From NCBI GenBank assembly GCA_963753345.1, contig CAVWBU010000016.1, forward strand, positions 197,150-261,149: a stretch of DNA of 64,000 nt, written 5' to 3'. The stretch's first letter is position 1. Each line of letters begins with the position of its first letter. Position numbers and translations under genes: made by a program. Under the pieces are notes generated by a model that worked only from the letters and a program-made list of their open reading frames with translations, made no database searches and was not told where the DNA came from. Positions 12,778 through 60,028 of this stretch are shown here, piece after piece. Source of the DNA: an uncultured Fibrobacterota bacterium. GTDB lineage: Bacteria; Fibrobacterota; Chitinivibrionia; Chitinivibrionales; FEN-1185.

Positions 12778-13163
12778 GTGGGGGAGGTTTCCCCCTCGCT
12801 GCGGCTCGGTCACACCACTTTACAAGTTAGATTTTCGATCATGCATGACCGAGCCTCCGCTACCCCCTCTTGGGTGCACCCCAAGTGGAAGCGGTTGCAA
12901 GCATCAAACACCTGTGTGGGGCACCCACCAGCGACTGTGGCAATAAAAATCGGCCCGACAGATTACCCAACAAAACGTTAGTGAAAGAAATCAAAGCCGG
13001 CAATCATCCTCTGCCCGCGCGCCAGGCAGGACTGGAAAAATGGTCCCGCTTGAGGCGGGATGCCGCCCGGACCCGCCGCTACTGCGGCATAGGACCGTGG
13101 CGGCCCGAGGCCAAAGGCCGAGACCGGAAGGACGGCCGCCGCCGCAAAGCGGCGGGGCGCCCA
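12778..13163 (-). repeat. Structured intergenic repeat, complete A-linker-B (locus 3)
   Basis: Reverse complement: A from 13163 (tgggcgccccgccgc...cctgcctggcgc) to ~13017; B from 12928 to 12778 (...gagggggaaacctcccccac). Confidence 0.9.
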
Positions 13164-13185
13164 TTTCCTTTTATTATTCTTGTGA

Positions 13186-13221
13186 CGCGGCCGGGCTGGA
13201 GCGAGGGGGATACCTCCCCCA
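13186..13221 (+). repeat. 3' fragment of module B
   Basis: cgcggccgggctggagcgagggggatacctccccca. Confidence 0.8.
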
Positions 13222-13245
13222 ATATGAAATTGCCTTTTATCTATA

Positions 13246-13764
13246 TCACTCACCAGAATAATTTATAAGCGTCTTTGGATCATACTCTCCAATTTTATCT
13301 TTATACTTCAAAAACGGCAGCCCTATTATACCGAACATTCCCGCCACTTCTCCACCCTGGCGCCTCACCATTTTCGCGACAGCCTCGAGCGTGCCGCCGG
13401 TCGCGATCAGGTCGTCGATGATGAGCCATTTTCCGGGAACAAGGTCTGCACTGTGGATCTGGAGCGTTGCCTGCCCGTACTCCAGCGCATAACTCTCTTC
13501 GATTGTTTTTCCCGGCAGCTTTCCCTTCTTGCGCGCAAGCACGAGCGGCAGTCCGCGCTCAACCGCGAAGCAGGATCCCAGGAGAAATCCCCGGCTTTCT
13601 ATTGCGATCACGCCGGTCACCGCGGTGTTTTTGTATAAAGCGAGCATCCGTTCCACGGTGTATTGGTATGCTTTTGGGTTTGTGAAGATGCTTGTCACGT
13701 CGTAAAACAGCACGCCCGGCTTGGGAAAATCCGGCACTTTCCTGATGGCATCGTCGAGGTTCAT
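13246..13764 (-). CDS. apt: Adenine phosphoribosyltransferase
   Basis: IRKVPDFPKPGVLFYD, IESRGF, RKKGKLPG, YALEYG, IIDDLIATGGT. Confidence 0.96.
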   Translation of the reverse strand: MNLDDAIRKVPDFPKPGVLFYDVTSIFTNPKAYQYTVERMLALYKNTAVTGVIAIESRGFLLGSCFAVERGLPLVLARKKGKLPGKTIEESYALEYGQATLQIHSADLVPGKWLIIDDLIATGGTLEAVAKMVRRQGGEVAGMFGIIGLPFLKYKDKIGEYDPKTLINYSGE

Positions 13765-13915
13765 GCGGTCTCCTTGGTTGTTGGTCAAAAGCGAGTTGGA
13801 AATATACGTTTCGAGACGGAATTCTCCAAGATCGGGCGGTTACAACAAGACAAGCTTGTGCCGCAAATGGCAAGGAAAATGTATATTGAAAGAGATGTAA
13901 TTAATTTAGAAAAAT

Positions 13916-14084
13916 TGGGCGTTACCCCTTTTGGAGTGGCATTCTATCAATGCCACTCCAAAAGGGGTCGGCTCTCCCTCCGGGCTCAGCCTGGCGGCCT
14001 CGTTGCCGCCTGTCCCTAACGCCTTCGGCGAGGGATCAGGCGTCAATCCCGCTATGGCGGGACCGCTCCGGTCCTGCCTAACGC
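13916..14084 (+). repeat. Structured intergenic repeat, module A only, with expanded first hairpin (locus 4)
   Basis: tgggcgtt, then a perfect 20-bp hairpin at 13924-13968, then ...tcccgctatggcggga...cctgcctaacgc. Confidence 0.85.
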
Positions 14085-14276
14085 GCCCAAAAAGTAGATT
14101 GGGCCCGGGCGCAGCTTGGCCAAGGCATGATTCAGCCAGGTCGGTACGTACGCTCAGGTGGATAGGGACGGATTCTACAGCAGCAGTCACTTTGGTTTTT
14201 CACAAGAAAGAATTTTTATTTCTTTTTTGATCGTTCGCGCTGGTGAAGAGTGGTGGATTTTACAGCGGCAGTCACT

Positions 14277-19325: not shown

Positions 19326-19379
19326 AGAAAATATTCATGCGGGTGATGTTCAGCCTGTCTCAAAACTCAAGAGAAGATC

Positions 19380-19767
19380 TGGGCGCCCCGCCGAAGACGG
19401 CGGCGGTTCTCCTTTCGGGCTCGGCTATTCGCCTCGTTGCCGGACCGCCCTAGTCGCCTGCGGCGAGGGTCGGCCGGCAATGCGCTCTGGCGCACCCTTC
19501 AGTCCAACCTGGCGCAGCGGCATCAGAACTCTATTCAGTCAACTGTCTTCCTTACGCCAGGCAGAGTCTTTAATAAGTCAAAAGCAACATTTTTCTATAT
19601 GAACTTCTCAACTACTCTCCGTGGGTGCCCCCACACAGGAGTCTGGTTCTGCAACTGCATCCACTTGGGGGTCACCCAGGAGGGGGTAGCGGAGGACCGG
19701 TCGCGCGCATTGGAATGCTTGTTTGTAAAGTAGCGCGACCGGGCCGCAGCGAGGGGGATACCTCCCT
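19380..19767 (+). repeat. Structured intergenic repeat, complete A-linker-B (locus 5)
   Basis: A 19380-19515, linker ctattcagtcaa..cttacgcca, B 19621-19767; fills the gap between two convergent genes. Confidence 0.9.
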
Positions 19768-19800
19768 CCTTGCGTGCTTTTCTTATACGTCAAATACTAC

Positions 19801-27544: not shown

Positions 27545-27669
27545 ACCCTTTCAGAAAGGCGTATATGTGAAGGTTGCAAAGTTTAAGTTCAATTTGTCAA
27601 CCGTGCCAAAACAACGGGAGATTCGCAGACGCGACTACTCCTGTAGCGTTGTATGCAGTAGTAGTCGTG

Positions 27670-27694
27670 GTGCTTCGCGTCGCTCGCAATGACA
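27670..27694. repeat. Single REP-like unit (TGCTTCG..GCTCGCAATGAC type)
   Basis: gtgcttcgcgtcgctcgcaatgaca; only one copy in the window, recognised from general familiarity. Confidence 0.4.
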
Positions 27695-27784
27695 CCAGAC
27701 TTTCTTTTCACCAACTTTCACGCCAAACTTCTCAACGTTTCAACTCTTTGCCTTTTTAACGCATTTTCTTTTCAACTATTCTCC

Positions 27785-27933
27785 GTGGGTGCCCCCACAC
27801 CAATGCTTGGTTCTGCTACCGCTTCCACACGGGGGCTACCCGCGAGGGGGTAGCGGAAGACCGGCGCGCGGTTGACAATACACACAAATGTTACCCCGCG
27901 CGCCGGGCTGAAGCGAGGGGGATACTTCCCCCC
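27785..27933 (+). repeat. Structured intergenic repeat, module B only (locus 6)
   Basis: gtgggtgcccccacac...gggggctacccgcgagggggtagcggaagaccggcgcgc...gagggggatacttccccc, preceded by a tcaac-rich tract. Confidence 0.9.
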
Positions 27934-27954
27934 TTGCATGCTTCATCATCTTTC

Positions 27955-30900
27955 TTATTTTATTAACGTCATCTTCCTGTCAAACACCCCGAGCTGCCTT
28001 CCGGTCTTGGCAACCGCGGACATCGAAATAACGTACACGCCGGCGACGACGGGCCTGCCGTCGGAGGACCGCGCGTCCCAAAGAAGATCGGAAGTCCCGG
28101 TCATGAAGCCCGGCGTTACCATGGTCCGCCACACGATCCGGCCGCGCAGGTCGTAAATGACGAATTTCACCTTGTCAACACCGTCGTACGGCAGGCTGTA
28201 CCGTATGCGGACGAACGTGCGGAACGGGTTGGGATACGTTCCCACGAACCGCAGCACGCCCGGCCTTGCAATCATGCGCGCCTTTGCGAGATACGCGGGG
28301 GTCCCCGCGAACAGCCAGCGATATTCCTTTGCGGCGGCGTCGACCGTCACTGCGGCGCCGGCGGCGGCAATGTCTTCAATCGAGTCTCTTGACGGATCGT
28401 AAAGCTTCGCGTTCATGCCCTGCGGCAGCGCCGCAGCGTTGCCGACCCGGTACGACATCGTGAGCCTTGCGTCGGTCTCGTTGCCGAACACGAGGAGGAA
28501 GGACGCGCCCCCGTCGCTCACGGAATGCGCCATGGCGTTGCCGCGCACGCGGCGTGCCGCGGCATCGTACACGCCGACGTACGCCTTGACAAGCGAGGGA
28601 GCCATCGGATAGTAGGAAACCGTCCCGGTCTTTGCGGCATGGTAACCGCAGTACACCGACGTAAGCGGCGTGCCGTCGGCAAGCGTCGGAACGACCGTGA
28701 GGGCCCAGCCGGCCGACGCTATCGCCGGTTTCTTGGCAAGGCCGATTTTCGACATCGCCTGCGGAAGGGGCGGAATCACGAGAGCAATGGTGTCGGCGCA
28801 GGGATTGTACACGGTGAAACCGGCGTCCGCGGCCGCGGATAGAACGGTCGCGGCGTTGCTGAGGGAATCAATGCCCGCAATGAATTTCGCCTCGGTACGG
28901 TACCTTCCGGCAGGGTCCTTGCGCCAGGAGTAGAACTCGAGGGTGTCGGGCGGGGAAATTGCAGAGCCCGTCGCCGTGAATATGTCTCCCAGCGCGATGT
29001 CGAAGTTGAACGGCAGGTCGAAATCGGTCCAGTTGCCCGGCGGGAGTTTGAGCGAAAAGGGCTTCAAGAGCGACGCCGTGATGCCGCGGCCGAACGTAAT
29101 CTCCGCCATGGCTTTGGTCTTGAGCCAGATCAGGGTTCCGCGCGAAAGCGCGAACTGCGCAGCGCCGGTGTCCGAGTATTCGGTCCATTTGGATTCGCTC
29201 GCGGCATTGCCGGATGAAGGAATCCAGCGGAAGACTCTGAACGCCGTATTGTCGTATTTCCATGCGCCCTTCACGGCCAGGGGCCTCAGCACGCTCCGGA
29301 TGTCCTGCGTGTCAAGGACCGCGTTCGTGGCCAGGGGCGCCCATTGCTGCGCGGTGGTGTGCAGGGACCCGGCCGTGTCGAGGATCACCGATCGCGACAG
29401 CACCAGGGAATCCCGGTGCGAGCCGTCGAAGGCGTACAGGACCGCGCGGACGCCGTTGTCGCCGCTCACGTACTGTCCGGCGACCCTGACGATGACCGTG
29501 TCGAGCGTGTCCGACAGCGTGGCGAACTGGCCGGTGTCGCTTGTAAAGAGCGACAACCCGCCCTTCGCCGCGTAGAAGTGCCACGAAACGTTGGAAATAT
29601 GGTCGCGGATCACGATCGTGTCGCTGAAGCCCTGGCCCGCAGGCAGCGAGTCCCAGGCGCCCGGCTGCACGGTGAGGCGCGGATGCGTGGTGTCGACCAT
29701 TGCGACAAACGGGAAATTAAGCTGGTTGGTGAGTACATACACGTACCTGCCGACCGTATCAACGGCAAACGGATCGCCGTCGACCATCCAGGCGCCCGAC
29801 GCCGTGCGGTAGAAGATGCGCACGTCGCTCAGGGTGTATCCCGGCGGAATCGTGTCGACCTTGATTCCCACATAGAAAGGAAGGCCGACGTCGGCGTTCT
29901 TGAATTCGAACCCGACGCCCGCCTGCACGAACCCGGCAAGCGCGGCGGGGGCGAACGTGACGTAGTACAGCGTGTTGTGGGTCACCGACGAGTCGCCGGG
30001 CGTGTTGAGCAGCCGCACGTTGTTGTTGAAGGCGAACACCGTGTCGTTCTGCTTTGTAAAGTAAACCACGTTTTGCCAGGTAAAGGCCGGCACGTGCACG
30101 CTGTCGTACGCCAGGGCAGTCGGCCGCGTCCACGCCCCGTCCGACCGTCTCAGCCACAGACTTACGTAGTAGGTGTGGTCGAAGATGATGTTGCCGCCTA
30201 CGTTCACGTATGCGCAGGCGTTCGCGGACGCGACATCGACCACCTGCTGCTGCCCGGTGTTCACCGTGGGCAGCGAATCCGCCGAGTACAGGATGCCGAT
30301 TTGCAGGCTGTCGGCCTGCGCCGGGTTCACGCTCCAGCACACCTTGATCTCGCTGACCGAGGTGTCGAACGTGAGGCTCGTCACCTGCGCGCTGTTGGAC
30401 GGCAGCGTGTCGCCCGCCTTGAGCGTGGAATCGGTCGCGCTCGCCGAGTCCGTAATCAGCGACCACAATCCTCCCTTGTAAACCTGGGCTCCGAAGTAGT
30501 ACCGCGTCTTTTCGTTGAACTTGTTCCCGATGATCACCGTGTCCGAGACCGCGGGAACAAGGGAGTCGAGATTGAGCGACGTGACGTCGGCGACGAGCGG
30601 AACCGCAGCGCCGCTGCGGTACCAGATCATGATGCGCTCGATGCCGGTCTGCGCCACGTTGTTCCACGTGAGCCGGATCCTGGTCGACGACAGCGCGTGC
30701 GCCGCGAGATGGATCGGGTTGTGCGGCCGCAGCTTTCCCACAAGGAACGACGTGGACAGCGCCGGGCTGTACCGTGCGTTCCTGCCGTGGAGTTCCACGG
30801 CGGCATACATGGTTTTCTGTTCGTTGTTGAACTGCGTGTTGACAATGGAAATTGCATACCGGGTCCCCGCCTTCGCCACGTCGGACGCGGAGTACCACTT

Positions 30901-43998: not shown

Positions 43999-44162
43999 AG
44001 ATCAAAGGTTCCTTTTTCTTCGGGGACCTACGTGCAAAGTATGAAGAGTGTTGACGAAACTTACTAAAAATAGTCTTTTGATGAGGAGGGCTGGAATGAA
44101 TAAGTAGCATGGCGATTCCAGATTCTGGTGGGGGCACCGCTTCGCGAATTACAGATAAAGCC

Positions 44163-44526
44163 GGGCGTTCCCCTCGCTGCGCTCGGGTCGGCCGTCCTTC
44201 CGGTCTCGGCCTTCGGCCTCGGGCTGCCTGCCACGAGGGCCCTGCGGGCCGTGGTCAGGCAGCACCGCGCTTCAGCGCGGCCTCCAGTCCTGCCTAACGC
44301 GCGGCAACCGAAGTCTATTTCGTAAACTACTATTTCTTGCGCCAGCCGGAGTCCCTGCGTGGAATTTTAACCTATCATCAAATCTCCGTGGGTGCCCCCA
44401 ACCGAAGCATGTTTCTCGCAAATAAACTGACTTGGGGGCCACCCAGGAGGGGGAGCGCCCGCCCAACGGGAAGGGCGGAAAGCGCCGGAGGACCGCAGGG
44501 CCGGAGCGAGGGGGAGCCTTCCCCCA
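44163..44526 (+). repeat. Structured intergenic repeat, complete A-linker-B (locus 10)
   Basis: A 44163-44300; B 44388-44526, with a cgccc..gggcg insert and a short gca-loop arm. Confidence 0.92.
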
Positions 44527-44586
44527 CATGAATACTTTTTCAGCTTTGTGTGACTTTCCATCTCCTTCCCGCCTAAATATTATTTT

Positions 44587-45033
44587 TTGATGTCCTTCAG
44601 GTTCAACGCACACTTCCCAAAAAGGACCCATCACTTGCAAACCTTCCCCCCAGTCGAATCCCTTCTTCCCCACCGGCCTCCCGCCATTGTCGTGGATGCC
44701 ATTGTCGCATTTGAAAAGGGAAAAATCAAATGTGCTCGAACGGTGCGGCCAAACGAGCACTACGGCCCGGGCCTCTCGCCCGAAGGCATCGTGGAGTTCT
44801 GCGCGCAGGCAGCCATCCTGTGCGAGGCTATGGAATCGGGCGGCGCCAGGAAACAGGGCGTGCTTGCGGGCATCGACGATTTTGTCTTTTCCGGCAGCGC
44901 AGCTTCGGGCGACAAACTTGAAGCGGAAATAACCGTGAAAACAAAATTCGGCAACCTCGGCCTGTTCGAATGCAGCGCGACGGTGAACGGCGCCCCGTTG
45001 GCCCACGGCTTTATCAAGGCGGCGCAGTCGTGA
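44587..45033 (+). CDS. Hot-dog-fold 3-hydroxyacyl-ACP dehydratase (FabZ/ApeP-like); true start possibly TTG 44635
   Basis: LLPHRPP..VVD, GIVEFCAQA, GVLAGID.F. Confidence 0.8.
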   Translation: MMSFRFNAHFPKRTHHLQTFPPVESLLPHRPPAIVVDAIVAFEKGKIKCARTVRPNEHYGPGLSPEGIVEFCAQAAILCEAMESGGARKQGVLAGIDDFVFSGSAASGDKLEAEITVKTKFGNLGLFECSATVNGAPLAHGFIKAAQS

Positions 45034-46145
45034 CCGTGGCACCACGCAGCGCGGTCGTCATCGAGGAATGCGGCATTCTCTGCGGTCTTGGCTCGCTTGA
45101 CGAAACAGTAACCGACTTGTTCGACGGCGCGAGCGCTATTGTTCCCGGTCCGTGCTTCGGCGTGCCCGTTGCCTACGCGCCGTTCGAAAACATCGCATGG
45201 CGCAGCCTGCGGTCCGCGGCCGAAGCGCTTGGCCCCCGCATAACCGTGTCGGAGCTTGACAAAGACACAACCGTTTTCATTTTCTGCGCGGCAAAAGGCG
45301 ACATCTCCGCGCTCGAGGCGTACTGCGAATCGCGCACGCCGCCCGCCGAATTTCTGCCCCTGCTTTCCTCACAGGCCGCGTTCGCGCACAAGATACTCGG
45401 CGCGCCTGCGGGCAGGACCATCGTGCTCTCCGACGCCTGCGCATCGGGCGCCACGGGCGTCGAGATAGGCAGGGAACTTCTCGTTTCCGGCCGCGCGAAA
45501 GCCGCGGTGGTGTTCGGCTTCGACGGCATTTCGCGCTTCGTTGCCACAGGGTTCCAGTCGCTTTCGGCCCTGTCGCCCTCGGGCGCGCGTCCGTTCGACA
45601 CATCGCGCGACGGCCTCACCATCGGCGACGGCGCGGCCGTCGCCCTGCTGACGTACCGCGAAGCGTTTTCCGGCGACATAACGGTTGCCGGCGCCGGCAG
45701 TTCGAACGACGCCAACCACCGCACCGGGCCGTCGCGCACGGGCGAGGGCCTTTTCCGCGCGGCAAAGGCCGCGCTTGACGATGCGGGAATGTTGCCCGGA
45801 CAGATCGGCGGCGTCAAGTGCCACGGCACCGCGACAAAGTACAACGACGCCATGGAGGCCAAGGCCATAACAAGCCTGTTCGGCGAAGCGATTCCCCCTT
45901 GCTTTTCGATAAAAGGCGCCATCGGCCATACCAGCGGCGCCGGTTCGCTTCTGGAAATCTGCGTCGCCGCCGAATGCCTGCGCCGCAGGCTGGCCCCGCC
46001 CACAGCGGGTTTTTCCACCCTCGGCGTGGACGAGTCCGTGCCCGTGTCCGCGTCGCAGCAGGTGCTTTTGTCAAACACCATGCTCTGCCTGTCGGCCGGG
46101 TTCGGGGGCATCAATGCGGCTGTCGTGCTTTCGGAGGTGCGATGA
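45030..46145 (+). CDS. Beta-ketoacyl-ACP synthase (FabB/F-like)
   Basis: SDACASG, RPFD..RDG...GDGA, HGTAT..ND, KGAIGHT, GFGG.N. Confidence 0.9.
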   Translation: MTVAPRSAVVIEECGILCGLGSLDETVTDLFDGASAIVPGPCFGVPVAYAPFENIAWRSLRSAAEALGPRITVSELDKDTTVFIFCAAKGDISALEAYCESRTPPAEFLPLLSSQAAFAHKILGAPAGRTIVLSDACASGATGVEIGRELLVSGRAKAAVVFGFDGISRFVATGFQSLSALSPSGARPFDTSRDGLTIGDGAAVALLTYREAFSGDITVAGAGSSNDANHRTGPSRTGEGLFRAAKAALDDAGMLPGQIGGVKCHGTATKYNDAMEAKAITSLFGEAIPPCFSIKGAIGHTSGAGSLLEICVAAECLRRRLAPPTAGFSTLGVDESVPVSASQQVLLSNTMLCLSAGFGGINAAVVLSEVR

Positions 46146-46921
46146 GCGGGCGCATATTCATCGAATCGTTTTCTTCCCTTACGGCAGAGGGAATTACCGG
46201 ACCCTCCGGCATGCGCGGCTGGGACAGCGGGCAGAAAGGCCCGCAGGACGTGCGGCGCGACCAGGTTCTCAACAAGCCGTATGTCAATTTCGGCAAACTC
46301 ATGCTTCCGGACAAGCTTGCCTTTAGCGCGGCATCGGCGGTCCTTTCGAATTGCGAACCGGCAAACCCGGAAACAACCGCAATAACGCTCGGCATCTGCG
46401 CGGGTTCGCTCTCCACCGATTTGCGGTACATGGAATCGGTGCTCGCCGGCTTCCCGAGCCCGGCCATCTTCTCGGCAACGCTCCCTTCGTCGGCGATCGC
46501 CGATGTCGCAATCTACTTCGGCATTAAGGGTCCCAACCGCGTTATCGCCGGCAACAGCGGAAGCGGACTTTTGGCCCTCGACCTCGCCTGCACGATTCTC
46601 GCATGCGGCAAGGCGTCGGCCGCGCTCTGGCTCTGCGTGAACGCCGTGGAGCCGCAGGACGCTGGCATTCCCCTGCTTGACGAATCGGTTACAGCGGCGT
46701 GCAGCGCGTATGCGCTGCTCCTTGCCTGCCGCCGCCTGCCCGGCGACCTGGGCATCGGCCTCACGGCGTCGTTCGCTCAGGCCGCCGACAAAGGTGCGGC
46801 GTCCCGCGACGAAGTATATTTTACGCAATTATTCGGACTCCTGCACGAGCGGAAAAGCGGCACGGTGCACGCAGTCTCGGGCGACACGGCCGCGACGCTG
46901 TCGCTTGCAAAGGAAGCATGA
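46142..46921 (+). CDS. Ketosynthase chain-length-factor-like protein
   Basis: FGKL...DKLAF, D..Y, PSPAIFSATLPS...I...IKGPN; no ACAS-type catalytic motif. Confidence 0.78.
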   Translation: MSGRIFIESFSSLTAEGITGPSGMRGWDSGQKGPQDVRRDQVLNKPYVNFGKLMLPDKLAFSAASAVLSNCEPANPETTAITLGICAGSLSTDLRYMESVLAGFPSPAIFSATLPSSAIADVAIYFGIKGPNRVIAGNSGSGLLALDLACTILACGKASAALWLCVNAVEPQDAGIPLLDESVTAACSAYALLLACRRLPGDLGIGLTASFAQAADKGAASRDEVYFTQLFGLLHERKSGTVHAVSGDTAATLSLAKEA

Positions 46922-47181
46922 TGGAACAGCTCATCGACACGCTCCGGAGGCAGATCGTCGCCACGCTGAAACTGTCCGACGTCAAGCCGGAGGACATCGA
47001 CCCTGACGCGCCGCTCATCGGCGCAGGCCTCGGCCTCGATTCCATCGACTCGCTCGAGCTGCTCGTGCTCCTCGAAAAGGAATACGGCGTGACGGTCCCC
47101 GACGTAAACGTGGGCAGGCAGGTGTTCGCATCGGTGCGTTCGCTCGCCTCCTACATAGAGCAACACCGTAGCAAAGGATAG
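46918..47181 (+). CDS. Acyl carrier protein
   Basis: PEDID.DAPL.G.GLGLDSIDSLEL (phosphopantetheine Ser). Confidence 0.92.
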   Translation: MMEQLIDTLRRQIVATLKLSDVKPEDIDPDAPLIGAGLGLDSIDSLELLVLLEKEYGVTVPDVNVGRQVFASVRSLASYIEQHRSKG

Positions 47182-47212
47182 TTTTCCCCTGGCTTCGCTC
47201 CCCCTTATCGGC

Positions 47213-48364
47213 ATGGGCGCGGTCTGCGCCGCGGGAACGGGCGTCGCTGCCGTACGCGACGCCGTATACGAAGGCAGGGACGGTCTTTCCCCTTTGTCTA
47301 TTTTCGAAAGCGGGCTTAAGGCTCCGCCGCTCTGCGGCCAGGTGACTCGCCTGCGCGACGAATTCGGCTCGCCCAACAGGACCATTGCGCTGGCCTGCGT
47401 TGCCGCCCGTGAAGCGCTCGCCCCGGTTGCCGACCCTGGCGGCATGCGCATAGGCCTCGTGTTCGCCACTACGGTTGCGGGAATCACCAGATCGGAACTA
47501 TTCTACAAAGCCCTGCGCGCCGACGCTTCGGCCGCGGCGAAAGCCGCGGAGGAACTCGCCTTCCACGAACCGTGCGCCGCGGCCGGCTTTCTGTGCCGCG
47601 CGTTCGGGCTTGCGGGCTTTTTTACTCTGTCAACCGCCTGCTCCACCGGGCTCCATGCCGTGGGAATGGCGAAACGCCTTGTTGAGGCCGGCGAATTCGA
47701 CGCGTGCCTCGCGGTGGGCGCGGACGCGCTCTCGCTTCTCACCATCCGCGGGTTCTCCAGCCTCATGCTTATCGACCCCAAGGGCTGCAAGCCGTTCGAT
47801 CGGCGCCGGGCGGGCACGAGCCTGGGCGAAGGCGCGGGCGCAATGCTTGTCGCATCGGAAGAAACCGCCCGGAAGCTCGGCGCGGCGCCGCTCGCCCGTA
47901 TCGGCGGATGGGGCGCGTCGGCCGACTGCCACCACATGACCGCGCCCCACCCCGAGGGACTCGGCGCGCAGAAGGCCATGGCCGCCGCGCTTGCAGAGGC
48001 TGGCATCGCACCTTCGGACGTGGGCGCCATCGCCACCCATGGGACCGCCACGCCCGACAACGACAAATCGGAAAGCGCGGCAATAAAGGCGCTGTTCGGC
48101 GCAGCGCCGCCATTCTTCTCCGTAAAGAGGACGATGGGGCACACGCTTGCCGCCTCCGGCATTCTCGAGGCGGTGTTTGCCGTGTGCGCCCTGCGCGACG
48201 CCACGGTCCCGCCTACGGCTGGATTCGAGCAGGCCGATCCTGCAATCGGGCTTTCCCCATCCGATCGTCAGCACAGGGAGATGCGGCACATCATAAAGAA
48301 TTCGTTCGGCTTCGGCGGCAACAACGCTTCAGCGGTTTTTTCGTTTGCAGAAGGGGGCCGGTAA
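47213..48364 (+). CDS. Beta-ketoacyl-ACP synthase (FabF-like); start uncertain
   Basis: STACSTG, KPFD.RR.G..LGEGA, HMTAPHPEG, HGTATPDND, KRTMGHT, NSFGFGGNN. Confidence 0.9.
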   Translation: MGAVCAAGTGVAAVRDAVYEGRDGLSPLSIFESGLKAPPLCGQVTRLRDEFGSPNRTIALACVAAREALAPVADPGGMRIGLVFATTVAGITRSELFYKALRADASAAAKAAEELAFHEPCAAAGFLCRAFGLAGFFTLSTACSTGLHAVGMAKRLVEAGEFDACLAVGADALSLLTIRGFSSLMLIDPKGCKPFDRRRAGTSLGEGAGAMLVASEETARKLGAAPLARIGGWGASADCHHMTAPHPEGLGAQKAMAAALAEAGIAPSDVGAIATHGTATPDNDKSESAAIKALFGAAPPFFSVKRTMGHTLAASGILEAVFAVCALRDATVPPTAGFEQADPAIGLSPSDRQHREMRHIIKNSFGFGGNNASAVFSFAEGGR

Positions 48365-49164
48365 TGATGGCCCCTCTTTTCATTTGCGGTTTCGGAGCGG
48401 CAATCCCGTCGGTCGACGCACAATGGCAGGCGGCAATCCCGGCAAACCTGAAGCGCCGGAGCCCGCGCATCTGGCTCATGGCATACGTTGCCGCGGCCCG
48501 GCTGCTTGCAACCACCGGCGAAAAACCGCGCTCGCTGGTGACGGGGACCGCGCTCGGCGCTCTTGACGAAACAAGAAACTTCCTCGACGGCATATTCAAG
48601 GACGGGTTCGGCTCGCCCACAAGTTTTATCGCCTCGGTGCACAACAGCATGGCCGGCAAACTTGCTCTCGATTTTGCCATAGACGGCCCCAACCTCACAT
48701 TGTGCGACGGCCAGAACTCCCTTGCATCGGCGATCGCTTCGGCCGCGCTCCTGCCAGCGGATGCGTTCCCGTGCCTCGTGGTCGCTGTTGACGAAAGCAT
48801 ACCGCTTTTCCGCGATCTTATTCCGCATCTGTCTCCCGGTTGCAGAAAGGGGCTTGCCGCAGCATCGGAAGAAGGCGCGGTTGCCCTGCTCCTTTCGAAA
48901 ACGCTCGTCCCCGGCGCGGCAACGGTGCGCGCCGCCATGCCGTCTCCTGTCGGTGCCCGGAACCCGCAGGATTGCGCCGCCGCGCTTGCAAAATCCTTCG
49001 GCCCGGGCCATGCCGGAGTGAGGCCGGTTGATTCGTGCACATCCTTTCTGAGCGCCGCGATTCAGGTGCACGCGGCACTACTGTCGGGGCGTCCGGGAAA
49101 GCATATCATGCTTTCTCATTCACCTTCGTCAATGGCCTGTGCGGCCATCGAGGTTGTCCTATGA
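48364..49164 (+). CDS. Ketosynthase chain-length-factor-like protein
   Basis: LKRRSPR, GTALG....T..FL, SPTSFIASVHNSMAG.LA. Confidence 0.78.
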   Translation: MMAPLFICGFGAAIPSVDAQWQAAIPANLKRRSPRIWLMAYVAAARLLATTGEKPRSLVTGTALGALDETRNFLDGIFKDGFGSPTSFIASVHNSMAGKLALDFAIDGPNLTLCDGQNSLASAIASAALLPADAFPCLVVAVDESIPLFRDLIPHLSPGCRKGLAAASEEGAVALLLSKTLVPGAATVRAAMPSPVGARNPQDCAAALAKSFGPGHAGVRPVDSCTSFLSAAIQVHAALLSGRPGKHIMLSHSPSSMACAAIEVVL

Positions 49165-49955
49165 ACCCCTTGCTTTTCTGGTTCGCGTCGTTTGCCGGTC
49201 TTGCCGCCGCTTTCGTGCTCCTGCCCGAGGTGCGGCTCATCACCGCGATTCTTGCGGTTCCGTACGTCGCCGTGTTTATCTGGGGAATCGTGGACCTGCG
49301 CAGCAGTTTCTTCGTGCGAGCATATATCCGCAACAAATGGGAACCATCGAACGTGGGACTCACGTTCGATGACGGGCCTGACGAAAATCTCACGGCCGAC
49401 ATACTCGACCTCTGTAAACGGTTTGGGTTCTGCGCCACGTTCTTTGTCGTGGGCAACCGTGCGCAGGCGCACCCGCAGCTTGTCAAGCGCATGATCGCCG
49501 AAGGACACGTGGTGGCGTGCCACGACCTCAGCCACTCGCTGTCGTCGAATTTCCGTTTTGCCAATGCAATGATCCGCGACATCGGCGCGGCCCAGGCGAT
49601 TGTCGCAGGCATCGTCGGCGCCAGGCCGCTCTTGTACCGTCCTCCCGTGGGGCTTGCAAACCCGCACCTCGGAAGCGCGCTCGCCGCACTCAAAATGAAA
49701 TGCATCGGCTGGAACAGGAGCGCGCGTGAGGCCGGCAACAGGCGCATCAGCAGCATCCGGCGGATTTCCGGCCTCAGGGTGAGGGGCGGCGACGTGCTGC
49801 TGCTGCACGACTGCCTTCCGGTCCCTGATTACAAAACGGAAATCCTGGCGCAGCTTGAGTCTTTGTTTTCGAGAATACGGGACGCAAAGCTCGTCCCCGT
49901 TGGAATAAACGACCTTTTCGAGATCACCGCCTACAAGGTTGACAATGCGCAATAA
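49161..49955 (+). CDS. Polysaccharide deacetylase (CE4/NodB) with N-terminal TM segments
   Basis: LTFDDGP, ATFFVVG, H(D)LSH, YRPPVG, LLLHD. Confidence 0.9.
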   Translation: MNPLLFWFASFAGLAAAFVLLPEVRLITAILAVPYVAVFIWGIVDLRSSFFVRAYIRNKWEPSNVGLTFDDGPDENLTADILDLCKRFGFCATFFVVGNRAQAHPQLVKRMIAEGHVVACHDLSHSLSSNFRFANAMIRDIGAAQAIVAGIVGARPLLYRPPVGLANPHLGSALAALKMKCIGWNRSAREAGNRRISSIRRISGLRVRGGDVLLLHDCLPVPDYKTEILAQLESLFSRIRDAKLVPVGINDLFEITAYKVDNAQ

Positions 49956-50340
49956 TCTATCGACCGATCCGGGCTTGCGGCAGGCCTTGACAACCGCTCT
50001 GTCTGACCTGATCGTGTCACCTGACAAGCGCTCCATCAACGCGGCATTTCTTCTTCCGGCAGACTCCCCTGTTTTCGCGGGCCACTTTCCCGGCATGCCG
50101 GTGATCCCGGCCGTGTATCAGGTGGCGCTATGTACAGAGGCTGTCAGGCGCATAGGGTCGTACGAGTTGAAAGGAATTTCCAAATCGCGGTTTTCGAAGA
50201 TGTGCATACCGTCGATCAACTACGATTTAAAAATATCGCTTGCGGAAAAGGGAGCAGAGGTTGAAGCGACGTGCTTGATTCACGAGGCGAACAAGAAGGC
50301 GTTGTGTTCGAAGATTGTTTTGATATTTAGGAAGAAGTGA
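49945..50340 (+). CDS. Hot-dog-fold dehydratase (ApeI/FabZ-like)
   Basis: VFAGHFPG.PVIPAV motif. Confidence 0.8.
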   Translation: MRNNLSTDPGLRQALTTALSDLIVSPDKRSINAAFLLPADSPVFAGHFPGMPVIPAVYQVALCTEAVRRIGSYELKGISKSRFSKMCIPSINYDLKISLAEKGAEVEATCLIHEANKKALCSKIVLIFRKK

Positions 50341-50346
50341 TAGGTT

Positions 50347-50732
50347 TGGGCGTTCCCCTCGCTCCACTCGGGTCGGTTTTATTTGAGACAAGATAGGAGT
50401 TGGGCGCCCCGCCGCTTCGCGGCGGCGGTCCTCCTTTCAGGCTCGGCCTTCGGCCTCGTTGCCGCCTGTCCCAACCGCCTTCGGCTAGGGATCAGGCGGC
50501 AATGCGCTCCAGCGCACCTTCCAGTCCGACCTGGCGCGCGGCAACGATAATTTATTCTGTCAATTAGTCTTTCTTGCGCCATCCCAGCATTCAACTTTCA
50601 ACTCGCAACTTTCAACTCTCTTTCTCGGTGCCCCCGCAGCAATGTGTGGTCTCGAATCTGCTTTATCAAGGGGGCTACCCAGGAGGGGGTGACGGAGGAC
50701 CGCAGGGCCGCAGGCAGGGGGATACTTCCCCC
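50347..50732 (+). repeat. Structured intergenic repeat: extra A 5' fragment plus complete A-linker-B (locus 11)
   Basis: Fragment tgggcgttcccctcgctccactcgggtcgg at 50347-50376; A 50401-50537; B 50627-50732; lies between convergent genes. Confidence 0.9.
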
Positions 50733-50743
50733 ACAAGAAGACT

Positions 50744-52357
50744 CTATTCTTTTATCACTTTCGGGCGTGTGTACTTTCTTATCAGAAACAATCCCACTGC
50801 CATTAAAACAATAAATACCGACAATAGCACCGGCCAATCACCAACCTTAGTGTACAATGTAGGAATCCGATACACGCTCAGGCCTCCCGACAGACATGTG
50901 CGCGTGTAAATATCGGTCTTCTTTGTAATCCTGCCATATTGATCGACGAACATGGTAATTCCCGTGTTGGCGGCCCTCGCGAGCGGCACGCCGTTTTCTA
51001 TGGTCCTCAGGCGCGCCATGGTCGCGTGCTGGAACGCGCCCGAGCTCCTGCCGAACCAGCCGTCGTTCGTGATGTTGACAAGAAGGTTTGCGCCGCGGAC
51101 CACGCGCTCGCGCACCGAGCCCGGGTAGATTATCTCGTAGCAGATGAACGGCGCGGCCCTCACCGTTTTCCCCATTGCAAACACCACCGGGTCCCTGCCC
51201 GCCTTGAAATCGGCCTGTCCGAGGTTCACGCGGCTCAGGATGGGAAACACGCCCGTGAACGGCAGCGTCTCTGAAAACGGAACAAGGTTCATTTTGCAGT
51301 ACGGCGAGAACTTCTGCGTGACCGGATCGAGAAAGAACGCCGTGTTGTACACGAAATAATCGCGGCCGTTGTTGCGCGGCGCAGGGTCCCAGTGGAGCGC
51401 GCCCACAATCATGGGAACGCGAATAATATTGAGCCATCCAATCACCCGCTCGACAAGCTGGGGTCGCCGGAGCAGATAACACAACAGCGCGCTTTCGGGC
51501 GTGATCACGAGGTCCGGTTTGGCAAGCGCTGCCTCCTTGAGGAGCGATTCCATGACGGCAAACGACGTGTCAAGCGACGTGTTGGTCCAGTGGTTCTGGT
51601 CGATATTCCCCTGGAGCAGGGCGATCTTCACGGGATTGACATCAGGCGAAGGCCCCTGCTTCATGCGGAAGTATCCCCACACCGAAACTGCCGCGAGCAC
51701 GATCGCAAACACCGGCAAGCCGAGGCGGACGGCGCCTTTCCGCTTGAGACTGCTCAGGAATTTCCACGCGAGCATGTTGCCGAGAATCACGGCAAAGGTG
51801 AGGCCGAACACGCCGGTTATCGAGGCAACCTGTGCCAGCGGCAGCAGCGGCGCGAGCGCATAGCCCGCGAAGTTCCACGGAAACGAAATTTCCCCGAGCG
51901 TTCGCTGATAATCCAGCAGGACCCAGATCGACGGAAAAATGATTACGGCAAGACTGGGAAATTTCTTTATGGTAAACCTGAACAGCATTCCGAGCAAAAG
52001 GTAATACAGGCCTTCGTACAGACAAATGATCAGCACGCCGATCACCACAAGGTGCCACAGGCCTTCCGGGACCACGAACGCGATCCAGTAGAACTGGCAC
52101 CCGCACGCCACGAACCCAAAGAGATAGCTGCGCCACGCCGCGCTTGAGCGCTTCGGCGCCAGGCTCACCAGAAACAGAGGCAGGCAGGCGAAGAAGCTTA
52201 ACAAGGGGAAAAACGTGAAAACAGGATGCAAAAGACCGTTGAACGGCGGCATGGCCAGCGCGTAGAACACGCCGCCTAAGCTGGCGATCCAGAGACCGTG
52301 CTTAGAAGCAGAAATATTTGTAAACCGGGAGAGAATAGAGCTTGTTGATGAGAGCAC
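50744..52357 (-). CDS. lnt: Apolipoprotein N-acyltransferase; start approximate
   Basis: FPWN..GY, QGNI, PESA, K.NLVPFSE, ICYE, NITNDGWFG.S.G..QH, RAANTG. Confidence 0.93.
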   Translation of the reverse strand: MLSSTSSILSRFTNISASKHGLWIASLGGVFYALAMPPFNGLLHPVFTFFPLLSFFACLPLFLVSLAPKRSSAAWRSYLFGFVACGCQFYWIAFVVPEGLWHLVVIGVLIICLYEGLYYLLLGMLFRFTIKKFPSLAVIIFPSIWVLLDYQRTLGEISFPWNFAGYALAPLLPLAQVASITGVFGLTFAVILGNMLAWKFLSSLKRKGAVRLGLPVFAIVLAAVSVWGYFRMKQGPSPDVNPVKIALLQGNIDQNHWTNTSLDTSFAVMESLLKEAALAKPDLVITPESALLCYLLRRPQLVERVIGWLNIIRVPMIVGALHWDPAPRNNGRDYFVYNTAFFLDPVTQKFSPYCKMNLVPFSETLPFTGVFPILSRVNLGQADFKAGRDPVVFAMGKTVRAAPFICYEIIYPGSVRERVVRGANLLVNITNDGWFGRSSGAFQHATMARLRTIENGVPLARAANTGITMFVDQYGRITKKTDIYTRTCLSGGLSVYRIPTLYTKVGDWPVLLSVFIVLMAVGLFLIRKYTRPKVIKE

Positions 52358-57776: not shown

Positions 57777-57830
57777 AAACGACTCCTCCCCGGGCCCGCC
57801 ATGTGCACCGGAAGGGCGACCAGCCCGCCG

Positions 57831-58133
57831 TCACCCCCGCTTTTGAAGCGCGTCCAGAACCGCGGCCCGCAGTTTCTGCCAGCCCGCCGGATCGTTCCTG
57901 TATCGATTGACAAAGGCTTTTGCCGTTGCCCCGTTTATTCCCGTAAGCGCGCACAGGCGGCGATAGCGCTGGGCCGCCTGCGTGCGCGAAACCGTCTTGT
58001 CGGTGGCAAGCAATTCGATGCCCGCAAAGTAGGAAACGAGATTCTGGTACGGCGGCGCTATATCGGCGGCACGAACGGCGCCGATCGCGCAGATCAGAAA
58101 TAGTGCGGCCAGCATCAGAAGGTTCTTTTTCAT
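57831..58133 (-). CDS. Small exported hypothetical protein
   Basis: MKK + hydrophobic signal peptide; co-directional with trxA. Confidence 0.6.
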   Translation of the reverse strand: MKKNLLMLAALFLICAIGAVRAADIAPPYQNLVSYFAGIELLATDKTVSRTQAAQRYRRLCALTGINGATAKAFVNRYRNDPAGWQKLRAAVLDALQKRG

Positions 58134-58208
58134 GCTGTATAAAAATGCTTGGTTCGGGACAAAGAGTCAAGATGATATAACCGTGTTTACAAGAGAAAGA
58201 TTTAAAAT

Positions 58209-58388
58209 TGGGCGTTCCCCCGCTTCGCGGGGTCGGTTCTCCTTCCGGTCTCGGGCGTTGCCCTCGGGCTGCCTGCCACGAGGGCCCTGCGGGCCGTGGC
58301 CAGGCAGCATCCCGCTATAGCGGGACCTCCAGTCGCTCCTAACGCGCGGCCGAAGAAATCTATTCAGTTAAGCTTGTCTGTGCGCCAA
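58209..58388 (+). repeat. Structured intergenic repeat, module A plus linker motif, no B (locus 12)
   Basis: tgggcgttccccgcttcgcgggg...cctaacgc (58345), then ctattcagttaa..tgtgcgcca. Confidence 0.9.
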
Positions 58389-58493
58389 CCTGATTTACAA
58401 AGGAAATTGTCCGGGCATTTTTTTTTGCTTCTCAACTCCTCAACCACTCAACTTTCTTAAATCTGTCAACCGTCAACTTTCAACTTTTAACTC

Positions 58494-59501
58494 TTAACTT
58501 CTTCCATACAGCTCCTCCAGCCCCCTCACCACCGCTTCGGGCCTCACCTTCCTCATGCATTTCCGCGACCCGGTGAGACACACGTTGCCGCCGTGCGCGT
58601 GACAGGGCCTGCAGAACCGGGCAGCCTCGAACACGCGGAAAGCAGGTTCGCCATAGGGAAAAAAACCGAAATGCGACGTCGTCGGGCCGTAGATGATGCC
58701 GGTCTTCACGCCGCAGGCCCTTGCAATATGCGAGAGTCCCGTGTCGTTGCCCAGGGCGACCGTACATTGCGAAACGAGACACGCCGTTTCGTACAGCGAC
58801 AGCTTTCCCGCGGAGGAAACACAGCGGTCGCCTACGGCGCTTTTCATCCTGTCGGCCGCGGCAATGTCCGAGGGCCCGCCGGCGATGAGCACGTCCCATC
58901 CCTTTGCGGCGAAATACCTGCCCACAAAGGTGTAAAACTTCGCGGGCCACTCCTTGTTCTTCCACGCGCTGAACGGAAACAGGGCGATGCGCGGCCGGAC
59001 CACCCCGCTTTCCGGGAGGATACCGAACGCGGTCCCGCATTTTTGTTTGTCAAGAATGAGGCGCGGCGCGGGAAATGCGCCCGGCGCGCCTTCGAACCCG
59101 CATGCCCGGGCGTACCGCGCGACCACGTTGTCTCCCTTGGGGTACAGACTGGCCCTAAAAAGCAGCAACACCGCGCGCTCAAAATGCCGCTTGCCCACGA
59201 CCGAAGCCTTTTCCAACGACACGAGGTCCTTCCGCAGAGAAAGGCTTCTGCGGCTGTTCTGCAGGTCGATGATCCTGCTCCACGCCGCGCCGGACAGCAC
59301 GGCCGCGGCTTCGCGCTCGCCGCCCTTGTCAACCGCAACCACCCGTGCCAGGCGCGGGTCGGCCGAGAAAAGTCCGGCGTATTTCCTGTCCGTTGCAAAC
59401 CAGAGGTTCGCCGTCGGAAACGAGGACTTCAGGTATTCGAAGACGCTCGCGGCAAGGACCACGTCGCCCATCGAGGAGAGACGGATGATGAGGATTTCCA
59501 T
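58494..59501 (-). CDS. Glycosyltransferase family 9 (LPS heptosyltransferase-like)
   Basis: ILIIRLSSMGDVVL, DLQ, KEWP, GKLSL, GNDTGLSHIA, YGPT. Confidence 0.92.
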   Translation of the reverse strand: MEILIIRLSSMGDVVLAASVFEYLKSSFPTANLWFATDRKYAGLFSADPRLARVVAVDKGGEREAAAVLSGAAWSRIIDLQNSRRSLSLRKDLVSLEKASVVGKRHFERAVLLLFRASLYPKGDNVVARYARACGFEGAPGAFPAPRLILDKQKCGTAFGILPESGVVRPRIALFPFSAWKNKEWPAKFYTFVGRYFAAKGWDVLIAGGPSDIAAADRMKSAVGDRCVSSAGKLSLYETACLVSQCTVALGNDTGLSHIARACGVKTGIIYGPTTSHFGFFPYGEPAFRVFEAARFCRPCHAHGGNVCLTGSRKCMRKVRPEAVVRGLEELYGRS

Positions 59502-59604
59502 GATTTTTTCGTTCCGAAAAATACCTTCCGATAGGAGCGCCGTGGGGGCAAAATATATTTTGATTTGAGTTATTTCTACCAAGCTGAAGAAAGGATTTTT
59601 TCAT

Positions 59605-60028
59605 GTGGGGGAAGTTTACCCCGTCGGGTACTTCCAAGGGTCGTCCCCCTTGCTCCGGCCCTGCGGTCCTCCGGTGCTTTCCGCCCTTCCCGTTGGGCGG
59701 GCGCTCCCCCTCCGGGGTGCACCCCTTGAAGGTGTAGTTGCAAGAATCAAACACCTGTGTGGGGGCACCCAAGGAGAGGTGTGGATTGATGATTGCGGAA
59801 TGTGGATTAAAAAAACCTTAGGTGGTTATTTTAAGATTCTGGTTGGCGCAAGAATATACCTTGACACAATAGATTTCCCCCTGCCGCGCGTTAGGTGGAC
59901 CGGAGTGGTCCCGCCGTAGCGGGATTGCCGGCCGACCCCGGCCGAAGGCCATCGGGGCGGTCCGGCAACGAGGCCGAACGGCCGAGCCCGTAGGGAGACC
60001 GGCCCGAGCGCAGCGAGGGAAACGCCCA
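59605..60028 (-). repeat. Structured intergenic repeat, complete A-linker-B (locus 13)
   Basis: Reverse complement: A 60028-59888, linker ctattgtgtcaa..cttgcgcca, B 59771-59605 with a ~23-nt insert in the terminal hairpin region. Confidence 0.9.

Follow-up and report, generated by a model that had tools for sequence, protein, structure and literature searches.

Two kinds of repeated module, A and B, recur between positions 12,778 and 60,028 of a 64,000-nt stretch of DNA from an uncultured Fibrobacterota bacterium (the whole stretch is hereafter the window), and an earlier note had read them as outward-facing recognition structures of folded single-stranded DNA (ssDNA), which raises the question of whether the modules fold as DNA or as RNA and by what process they are spread and rewritten. 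The family reaches beyond this interval to an A copy at 1589, a B copy at 3646 and the rest of the genome. The copies and associated features of the window are as follows.

1589–1762, minus strand (folded purine strand on minus): unpaired module A (nhmmer, 128.7 bits)
3646–3819, plus strand (purine strand plus): unpaired module B adjoining a gene stop (nhmmer, 126.6 bits; gene end at 3834)
12771–12943, minus strand: module B of a B-A doublet, with A at 13004–13171 (113.3 bits)
13004–13171, plus strand (purine strand plus): module A of the same doublet (91.4 bits)
13180–13229, plus strand: stub of a B outer end, outside the preceding A (33-bit partial match at 13156–13229; inverted repeat I22)
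13960–14097, minus strand: module A with a truncated outer arm (95 bits; sequence)
19373–19532, minus strand: module A of an A-B doublet, with B at 19602–19768 (107.8 bits)
19602–19768, plus strand: module B of the same doublet (139.9 bits)
27767–27935, plus strand: unpaired module B (124.8 bits)
38066–38264, plus strand: module B with an additional arm; upstream, only the outer stub of an A remains (108.7 bits; sequence)
38922–39094, plus strand: module B; at the orthologous site, four relatives have C, B, C and no module, respectively
42261–42437, minus strand: module A of an A-B doublet, with B at 42528–42702 (122.3 bits)
42438–42527, no strand: spacer of about 90 nt between this A and B, carrying short CAAC repeats and the motif GTCAA-N10-TTGCGC, which is semi-conserved
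42528–42702, plus strand: module B of the same doublet (132.6 bits)
44155–44316, minus strand: module A, preceded by a stub of a module C outer end (116 bits)
44369–44534, plus strand: module B with one arm capped by cc-GCA-gg (102.1 bits)
50394–50553, minus strand: module A of an A-B doublet, with B at 50608–50741; the site is empty in three relatives (116.5 bits)
50608–50741, plus strand: module B of the same doublet (102.7 bits)
58203–58361, minus strand: unpaired module A (117.7 bits)
59599–59787, minus strand: module B of a B-A doublet, with A at 59873–60035 (93.7 bits)
59618–59642, minus strand (purine strand): 25-nt cassette D inside the outer hairpin loop of this B (sequence; census)
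59873–60035, plus strand (purine strand plus): module A of the same doublet (99.3 bits)
62562–62581, minus strand: final 20 nt of an A copy, broken by an IS1111-type element (sequence)

The B stub at 13180–13229 may be the remnant of an earlier occupant, and the join to the left of the A remnant at 62562–62581 looks chimeric. GTCAA is degenerate in the spacer at 42438–42527. All A and B motifs quoted in the earlier note were recovered in the window on the strands it gave. On the strand opposite to the A-to-B direction, ggcc-GAA-ggcc was found at 42327, 44208, 50445 and 59940, ccccgc-GAA-gcgggg at 58218, ccgccgc-GAA-gcggcgg at 50409 and ggccc-GCA-gggcc at 44238 and 58283, together with two purine-rich A linkers (3 and 2 copies in the window), and the A-to-B strand carried the B purine tracts, 3 and 9 times in the window, along with cc-GCA-gg at 44493, 50700, 50708 and 59660. 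An Rfam search of the window returned no family at gathering score, nor at E ≤ 5 except for three chance matches, and a tRNA search of the window returned none.

Genome-wide, nhmmer detected 403 copies of A and 280 of B, 679 of these 683 matches lying for the most part outside called genes, and about 450 of the 1,602 long intergenic gaps were occupied. A, B and a third module, C, are non-coding intergenic repeats, the modules being 150–190 nt long and multibranched, and when two are paired their purine strands point away from a short spacer: in 229 of 240 close A/B pairs the purine strands lay on opposite strands and diverged from the spacer, in line with the outward-facing arrangement proposed earlier, and paired C copies obeyed the same polarity in 26 of 26 cases. 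The 198 A-B doublets had spacer lengths centred near 94 nt, and GTCAA was present in 143 of 183 B-paired A copies. Solo copies were unbiased with respect to the replication strand (52:50, 27:28), and the A-B doublets showed a bias of 87:44, which may follow gene orientation. Flanking genes were ordinary chromosomal genes, no gene family being enriched beside A or B in the source genome (G000). The family was present at high copy, in inverted doublets, and patchily across the genus: the relative G001 (73% complete) was rich in A and B, G003 (99% complete) had no detectable A or B, and many A/B sites were empty in relatives.

The idea that A and B are two dedicated ends of one unit is not supported: other doublets of the same polarity exist (A-A 29, B-B 2, C-A 23, C-B 3), no A or B partner lay within 400 nt of 147 of the 403 A copies or of 78 of the 280 B copies, and modules replace each other at the same site. 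In the comparison with a sister genome, 30 of 34 orthologous sites were reused with A, B or C interchanged, and the other four lacked A and B in the source genome. We consider it very improbable that A and B form the ends of a non-autonomous element excised and inserted whole by an HUH transposase: the doublets with their regular spacers, the four A/B-empty sites and the HUH genes of the genome would suit such an element, but the ends are interchangeable, complete copies are hardly ever shared (344 of 345 A copies were unique, yet parts were common to many copies), and, by eye, neither a clean junction nor a target duplication was seen at the four empty sites, where divergence or erosion is too far advanced for junctions to be read. 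The left and right end hairpins of IS200/IS605 lie on the same strand, whereas the folded strands of A and B are opposite in those 229 of 240 pairs, and PF01797 (IS200-type TnpA) had no match in G000 (94% complete) or in G001, which also sets the family apart from IS200/IS605 derivatives.

To which strand and to which nucleic acid the fold belongs was addressed by tabulating loops per strand. In 65.5 kb of A, perfect c(GNA)g-capped stems of at least 4 bp numbered 376 on the purine strand and 11 on its complement; in 44.3 kb of B the corresponding counts were 56 and 0, giving 432:11 for the two together. Their density in A (5.7/kb) far exceeded that in genes (0.21) and in other intergenic DNA (0.26). 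GNA accounted for 375 of 941 triloops of A, against 6.5% in base-shuffled A copies, and 369 of these 375 were closed by c-g. The caps pointed out in the earlier note are real, and their number is beyond chance. Loops of the form cGNABg (89) prevailed over cGNRAg (9) and cUUCGg (5), and the genome-wide tabulation thus did not yield RNA-type loops. The alternative reading of cttcgg as a UUCG tetraloop is disfavoured in A, where at least 3 bp of pairing formed in the triloop register at 498 of 682 CTNCGG sites and in the UNCG register at 24, and is left undiscriminated in B (168 versus 169 sites preferring each register). Two exceptions were noted in A, an ACA loop on the other strand in the central arm of 44 of 348 distinct copies and an H4 tetraloop readable on either strand.

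Internal loops and base pairs likewise marked the purine strand as the folded one. Of the A copies 336 of 340, and of the B copies 191 of 257, had a GNA/GNA internal loop, with all four middle bases occurring, and a GA/GA internal loop was present in 333 of 344 A and 342 of 346 B copies; (GNA)2 is a DNA structural motif, and tandem GA and purine 3x3 loops stabilise RNA too. G·T occupied about 1% of stem cells (A, 108 of 11,073; B, 61 of 4,935), compared with 59 G·U cells of 833 (7%) in 49 tRNAs of the same genome, although the alignment cells behind these counts are not independent of one another. Given 8 copies from the window, RNAalifold found three hairpins and the closing helix and missed the long central stem. 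Taken together, the loop and pair statistics appear to favour DNA over RNA, because UUCG and GNRA loops in true register are rare, G·T is far scarcer than G·U in tRNAs, and solo A copies are indifferent to the direction of transcription (37:32 for the sense strand); judged from sequence, the modules likely fold as ssDNA. Opening of the strands during replication, transcription or supercoiling would let the purine strand fold, and that the fold acts as DNA formed in this way is probable. PMC5737381 warns, however, that sequence makes it difficult to distinguish ssDNA from RNA motifs.

A related family, Flavo-1 (Rfam RF01705; Weinberg et al. 2010, PMC2864571), is classed by Rfam as an sRNA on the strand equal to the purine strand of A. 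When 9 copies from the window were aligned with a 52-bit Flavo-1 match and five further scaffold copies, A had the same terminal scaffold and GNA/GNA internal loop on its purine strand, that is, the same closing helix, outer hairpin and junction, and Flavo-1 is likewise dispersed between genes in both orientations (40 versus 21 tandem contexts). In place of the single G·A of Flavo-1, A has a tandem GA and a 4x4 loop; its distal arms number three or four, against one in Flavo-1, and its polarity relative to B or C is obligate. A also fails the Flavo-1 model (gathering threshold 42 bits), which had no match in the window and none at E ≤ 10 in G000, where 150 of 456 candidates were scored; the scaffold is absent from B and C. 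Phage genomes carry single scaffold copies, and in none of 13 cases in viral contigs (0 of 13) was the scaffold purine strand sense relative to both flanks, which tells against the DNA reading. No gene family was enriched next to 19 viral scaffold copies or about 120 bacterial Flavo-1-type loci, and B patterns had no match in viral contigs and one chance match elsewhere.

The purine strands might be small RNAs transcribed divergently from the spacer, or mRNA 3′ stabilisers or pause sites spreading through RNA, and the divergent geometry would suit a two-way promoter, with a TTGAC hexamer directed at the A purine strand in 143 of 183 B-paired copies. B is indeed oriented to transcription, its pyrimidine strand being sense in 105 of 140 tandem contexts and its outer end pointing towards a gene 3′ end in 185 of 275, it adjoins stop codons, and for 71% of A and 76% of B copies RNA folding parameters, too, prefer the purine strand. 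Even so, we regard this explanation as quite unlikely: by eye, the consensus has no -10 box at promoter spacing after the hexamer, in-register GNRA and UUCG loops are nearly absent and G·T is scarce, solo A shows no preference for the sense strand, and Flavo-1 matches in Flavobacterium lie sense, antisense or off transcribed regions (PMC9723704).

How the copies change was examined at the orthologous sites, where the interior identity of A copies (0.70) was the same as for random pairs. Between such sites, A helices had changed on both strands in 54 cases, on one strand in 4 and on neither in 21, and B helices on both strands in 14 and on one in 13, the weak two-strand rule in B stems being partly due to alignment; helices differing on both strands together between related genomes would point to DNA rewritten while folded. 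Linkage in A mirrors the fold: columns that pair with each other over distances of up to 132 nt had r2 of 0.72–0.92, and neighbouring helices on one strand had r2 of 0.04–0.10, with P0/P1, P0/P3 and P1/P3 showing all four combinations. Simulated linear conversion broke the two longest-range pairs in 12–23% of copies after one round, compared with about 4% observed. No clean excision joint was found in sequencing-run contigs over 36000–52000, which broke at repeats. If the fold is DNA, we think it rather likely, a little less firmly than the DNA fold itself, that the fold governs exchange or that only correctly folded products persist. Under the former, a break and rejoining at matching stem points would swap everything distal between two folded copies.

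Selection at each locus could yield equal linkage without fold-directed exchange, and the modules may instead be folded-DNA sites serving the host (e.g., binding primase, a restart helicase, gyrase or a nucleoid protein, on both strands), with RecA conversion among about 700 copies and per-locus selection against broken helices in place of a dedicated enzyme. The reuse of 30 of 34 orthologous positions, set against the occupied fraction of long gaps, fits this explanation, as do a copy number tracked by no enzyme, the scaffold single copies in phage genomes and the d(GCGNAGC) mini-hairpins at phage G4 and ssiA priming sites and N4 promoters, which share the c(GNA)g cap (PMC13037366, where the RNA counterpart of the tetraloop form is reported as much less stable) but, unlike the dispersed and modular repeats here, each consist of one small hairpin at an origin or promoter. 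We nevertheless judge it rather unlikely. Per-locus selection must be weak, because the family is missing from G003 and relatives have many empty sites; yet some 96% of the long-range pairs have stayed intact, though simulated linear conversion breaks pairs fast; and a cutting step is still required for new insertions and for the GAC-specific cassette D, which was inserted inside A or B on the purine strand in 56 of 56 cases and preceded by host GAC in 61 of 65.

Enzymes of the HUH type, to which the earlier note had looked for recognition of the hairpins, are encoded in the source genome, namely three RAYT-like open reading frames with subclass 2.4 motifs, at C27:259564-260436, C35:162288-162770 and C32:21864-22664 of G000, and one IS91-like protein at C26:285187-286656 (profiles NF047646, PF04986). 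Two custom Y1 profiles gave a best E of 0.13, on a RAYT-like ORF, and missed the HUH proteins, as PF01797 did, and no relaxase (PF03432) was found in the genome. A lay about 105–113 nt downstream of one of the three RAYT-like genes in G000 and of one in G002, the latter being the only one of 12 such loci in relatives with A beside it. G003 had 6 RAYT-like matches despite undetectable A and B, and the A/B-rich G001 had none, so that the link of RAYT to A is weak. Double-foot GTAG/GCAG REPs occurred at 27 A arm tips, and no GTAG patterns were found outside A. IS91-like Y2 genes did not track the copy number of the repeats, and no enzyme tracked A/B copy number among the genomes compared; 20 Y1 loci from relatives had no A or B, which is little informative because most of them come from repeat-free families. 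Two small GIY-YIG genes were rejected as partners as they carry other repeats, and 8 tyrosine recombinases as they showed no consistent link. An IS1111-type element targets A, and its guide segments match A.

Among known systems, the family also resembles REP/BIME/REPIN repeats with RAYT (subclass 2.4, PMC6006769), which are also high-copy extragenic folded repeats in inverted doublets, patchy within a genus and colonised by an IS110-family element, and subclass-2.4-like genes and double-foot REPs are present here. The differences are that A and B are multibranched and 150–190 nt long instead of hairpins of 21–65 nt, that the module has no 5′ GTAG/GTGG foot (GTAG/GCAG REPs being confined to the 27 arm tips), that there is no convincing REPtron, and that interiors are likely rewritten in place. 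An integron attC site is a folded single strand recombined as a duplex (PMC5737381), with an invariant GTT/AAC core. Common to both would be a folded strand treated as a duplex, as the nested linkage would need, and attC sites, like A, are targeted by IS1111 elements (PMC11187229). On the other hand, A and B form no cassette arrays, GCC/GGC stands in for the GTT/AAC stem in 93–97 of 345 copies, and the flanking genes are ordinary.

Our preferred explanation, held tentatively at somewhat short of even confidence, is that A, B and C fold as ssDNA and are rewritten in place, arm by arm, through a fold-reading nick-and-rejoin process. The subclass-2.4-like RAYT (HUH Y1) of this genome, working in trans together with host repair, is a possible but doubtful candidate for the enzyme; in this reading the system would be a large modular REPIN/BIME relative on a Flavo-1 scaffold, mostly selfish, with possible secondary effects of B on mRNA 3′ ends. 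Less probable still is a dedicated enzyme that treats folded stems as a duplex and swaps whole arms chromosome-wide, always on the purine strand, with the Flavo-1 ‘RNA’ (Bacteroidota, Fibrobacterota, phages) as the simplest representative of a superfamily of recombination or priming sites made of folded DNA, a reading that we consider unlikely.

Natural ssDNA folds beyond the hairpin are rarely published, as PMC5737381 says of a candidate attC-like motif, and our search of the open literature, with few subscription papers covered, returned no description of the A/B family nor of Flavo-1 as DNA. The family offers hundreds of natural variants of one fold, showing which pairs, loops and junction bases are kept, and its DNA-or-RNA question is resolvable with a few oligos. 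The IS1111 element with A-matching guides would be a natural RNA-guided recombinase whose targets on the chromosome number several hundred. Flavo-1, which Rfam lists as an orphan ‘sRNA’ and which occurs in cultured Flavobacteria and Fibrobacter, is recast as a probable DNA element and is testable there, and in-place, fold-respecting rewriting bears on how REP-type repeats spread and persist.

In the window, module A was observed nine times and module B ten times, together with stubs, all located between ordinary genes. Profiles built from these copies with one refinement round, applied at a cut-off of 30 bits, retrieved 403 A and 280 B matches from the whole genome holding the window (G000; 4.5 Mb, 94% complete), amounting to 2.4% of its sequence, with 679 of the 683 matches falling mostly outside genes called by a self-trained model. 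A third module, C, in which a GNA-capped left half is joined to an outer half common to B, gave 38 matches in G000 and was frequent at the corresponding sites of G004 and G005, two other genomes of the genus. Copies of C include, among others:

Contig C15, 82688: module C
Contig C16, 184401: module C
Contig C16, 243022: module C

The distribution within the genus was patchy, with the B pattern matching 134 times in G000, 96 in its sister genome G001, and 22, 11, 10 and 0 times in G005, G004, G002 and G003, respectively; the corresponding counts for an A 12-mer were 115, 58, 12, 5, 9 and 1, the single G003 match being at control level. No description of this family was found in the literature searched, including an excerpt of PMC3733652.

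The earlier note had read A and B as two outward-facing single-stranded DNA (ssDNA) recognition structures lying on opposite strands, and this polarity was borne out genome-wide: in 229 of 240 neighboring pairs (<400 nt apart), the purine strands, which are the putatively folded ones, were on opposite strands and directed outward from the spacer (198 A-B, 29 A-A and 2 B-B doublets), and all 26 paired module C copies followed the same rule. It is impossible for both folds to lie on one transcript. The idea of A and B as two dedicated ends proved too narrow, as A, B and C are interchangeable at long-lived sites. The spacer, with a median of about 94 nt, contained a GTCAA-N10-TTGCGC motif by A, short CAAC repeats by B, and often further small palindromes. 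Small palindromic families also clustered in or near repeat sites (window 27620-27700, 37797-37900 and 38745-38785), including a CGTC/TGTC-type REP dimer, a 35-nt inverted repeat in place of the interior of A, and a purine/pyrimidine hairpin that we take to be one known from DUF559 genes.

Each motif quoted in the note was located in the window on the strand named, and the strand-specific, DNA-type folding grammar it proposed was found to be real. Perfect stems of at least 4 bp capped by c(GNA)g numbered 376 on the purine strand of A versus 11 on the opposite strand, and 56 versus 0 in B, with a background density of 0.21-0.26 per kb outside the modules. Helices were derived from column covariation among distinct copies (348 of A, 263 of B), with none assumed beforehand. 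For A, this gave a closing helix accompanied by an outer hairpin, three distal arms, and a long stem with two interruptions, namely a purine 4x4 loop containing a tandem GA and a 3x3 loop. The GNA/GNA form of the 3x3 loop, in which all four bases occur at the middle position, accounts for 336 of 340 A copies and 191 of 257 B copies. The two tandem GA sites were intact in 333 of 344 cases and in 342 of 346, respectively. Only when read on the strand bearing the GNA caps do the GNA/GNA and GA loops consist of purine mismatches.

Several features favor DNA. GNAB loops are stable in DNA, and in-register tetraloops comprised 89 cGNABg, 9 cGNRAg and 5 cUUCGg, with the triloop register favored at 618 of 682 CTNCGG sites in A. 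G·T pairs made up 1.0% (A) and 1.2% (B) of stem cells, compared to 7.1% G·U in the 49 tRNAs of G000, and the sense strand of solo A copies was split 37:32. An excerpt of PMC13037366 places GNA hairpins at phage G4, ssiA and N4 sites and gives r(GCGAAAGC) a value of 39 °C, far below the DNA form. Other observations favor RNA or count against a clean answer: the pyrimidine strand of B was sense in 105 of 140 tandem contexts, its outer end was toward a stop in 185 of 275, 44 A copies had one loop flipped to the other strand (the loop strand of hairpin H4 being ambiguous), and a TTGAC hexamer was directed at the purine strand of A, although with no -10 at promoter spacing. Moreover, sequence alone cannot reliably tell ssDNA from RNA motifs (PMC5737381, excerpt). 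Taken together, we consider it probable that the fold acts as DNA, not RNA.

Among 296 genomes of its phylum, 39 contained matches to the terminal scaffold of A, which was also matched in Bacteroidota genomes and in viral contigs, where 16 of 80 loci were flagged and 14 were genuine by eye, with further copies in another scan. One viral copy scored 52 bits with Rfam Flavo-1 and aligned with A continuously at both ends, and the Flavo-1 model holds, on the purine strand, the same 3x3 loop as A, whereas A itself gave no match to the model. Given the shared strand, loop and ends and the missing model match, A is, on these sequence features, built on the Flavo-1 scaffold but not a Flavo-1 member by Rfam's test. 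Flavo-1 matches in Flavobacterium psychrophilum are sense, antisense or beyond transcribed regions (PMC9723704, excerpt), and the main text of PMC2864571 (excerpt) has Flavo-1 in a table only. In phage contigs, a lone Flavo-1-scaffold element was observed right after a perfect TTGACA (L065:862, L088:1501, L098:1501, L102:1501, L150, L161 and L234). In the first four of these loci, it lies between downstream genes and an opposite-strand small helix-turn-helix gene, presumably terminase-small-subunit-like. Another viral contig contains a Pistol-ribozyme-like match (L083:2555-2634; 33 bits versus a gathering score of 34.5).

HUH proteins, the enzyme class named in the earlier note, were present in G000 as three RAYT-like ORFs and one IS91-like Y2 protein; PF01797 had no matches in G000 and G001. 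The RAYT-like ORFs score under the NF047646 cut-off and display NH[IF]H, WQ and YIxNNP motifs, two with internal insertions, features assigned to RAYT subclass 2.4 (PMC6006769, excerpt). Double-foot REPs of the subclass-2.4 kind were seen as the tips of 27 arms of A; none was found outside A in a search limited to GTAG patterns, the GCAG variant being sought inside A only. Two RAYT-like genes from different clades, one each in G000 and G002, are followed 105-113 nt downstream by an A copy that shares their orientation; 11 of 12 RAYT-like loci in relatives had no A or B, RAYT-like genes occur in G003, which lacks the repeats, and none was found in G001, which carries them. A tie between RAYT-like proteins and A is best treated as a lead rather than a result. 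A small GIY-YIG gene with ~102-nt tandem repeats on either side sits immediately upstream of one of the RAYT-like genes (G000 locus C27:259555-262773). The Y2 transposase has six close copies in G002:

Contig C26, 285187-286656: IS91-like Y2 transposase, with apparent integron-type sites upstream (by eye)

One A copy in the window is interrupted by a mobile element:

Window 62582-64000: IS1111-type element
Window 62818-63888: its IS110-family gene

Sub-terminal inverted repeats, and a non-coding region downstream of the gene, match the IS1111 pattern (PMC11187229, excerpt), and the insertion point is a CT in the closing helix of A. The same site was used in G005 (protein 83% identical) and metagenome locus L455 (81%), both with A flanks on either side, and, in a different A allele, in a contig of sequencing run X2; insertion was seen in three genomes or contigs (window 62582-64000, L452 and L455) plus this run contig. 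Two short segments of the non-coding region match the target: the first changes along with the target allele among three compared copies, and the second matches the purine strand across the CT. More distant relatives insert in other hairpin repeats (by eye), and IS1111 targeting of REP and attC sites offers a parallel. The element does not account for the spread of A. The assembly join at 62561/62562 looks chimeric, since four sequencing runs continue past window 62561 into the terminal part of contig C39, and an A copy matching window 62562-62581 forms the end of contig C42. Elsewhere in the window, the seryl-tRNA synthetase gene (42700-43998) loses its frame close to the 3' end, with an ORF stop at 42901, and a single frame accounts for 316 of the 433 residues in the comparison with relatives; two gaps in the run contigs over this stretch make an assembly error possible. 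A large immunoglobulin-repeat protein (27955-37518) is divided into two ORFs at ~34353-34816, possibly by a frameshift.

Whole A copies were unique in 344 of 345 cases, with single helices common to dozens, and linkage tracked the fold rather than linear position, as paired columns up to 132 nt apart showed r2 of 0.72-0.92 and adjacent helices on the same strand 0.04-0.10. All four combinations were seen for the helix pairs P0/P1, P0/P3 and P1/P3; some close pairs showed three combinations only, for which no recombination is needed. In simulations of linear gene conversion run on the real copies, a single round disrupted the two longest-range pairs in 12-23% of copies and three rounds did so in 22-40%, compared to about 4% observed. 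From 41 G001 loci picked by B matches, 34 repeat sites were mapped to G000 by both flanks (82-94% identical among those inspected), 30 being occupied in G000 and 4 not. At orthologous sites, modules swap with polarity kept, and old outer-end stubs persist outside the new module. The 12 same-orientation orthologous A pairs had a median identity of 0.70, equal to random A pairs; their helices had changed on both strands in 54 cases and one strand in 4 (21 unchanged, 5 unscored), and the closing helix was unchanged in 10 of 11. Among 16 orthologous B pairs, three were >90% identical, and the two-strand rule was weak (14 both strands, 13 one). The 25-nt cassette D was found within A or B in 56 cases, all on the purine strand and spread over at least 4 sites, with 61 of 65 distinct insertions coming after host GAC. 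Together, these data rule out simple copying of whole units as the chief way in which copies change, and call either for exchange at paired fold positions or for exchange that is frequent but followed by stringent loss of products that misfold. We tentatively, at somewhat less than even confidence, regard A, B and C as a folded-ssDNA repeat system of the REP/BIME kind on a Flavo-1 scaffold, whose repeats would be rewritten in place in a way that depends on their single-stranded fold.
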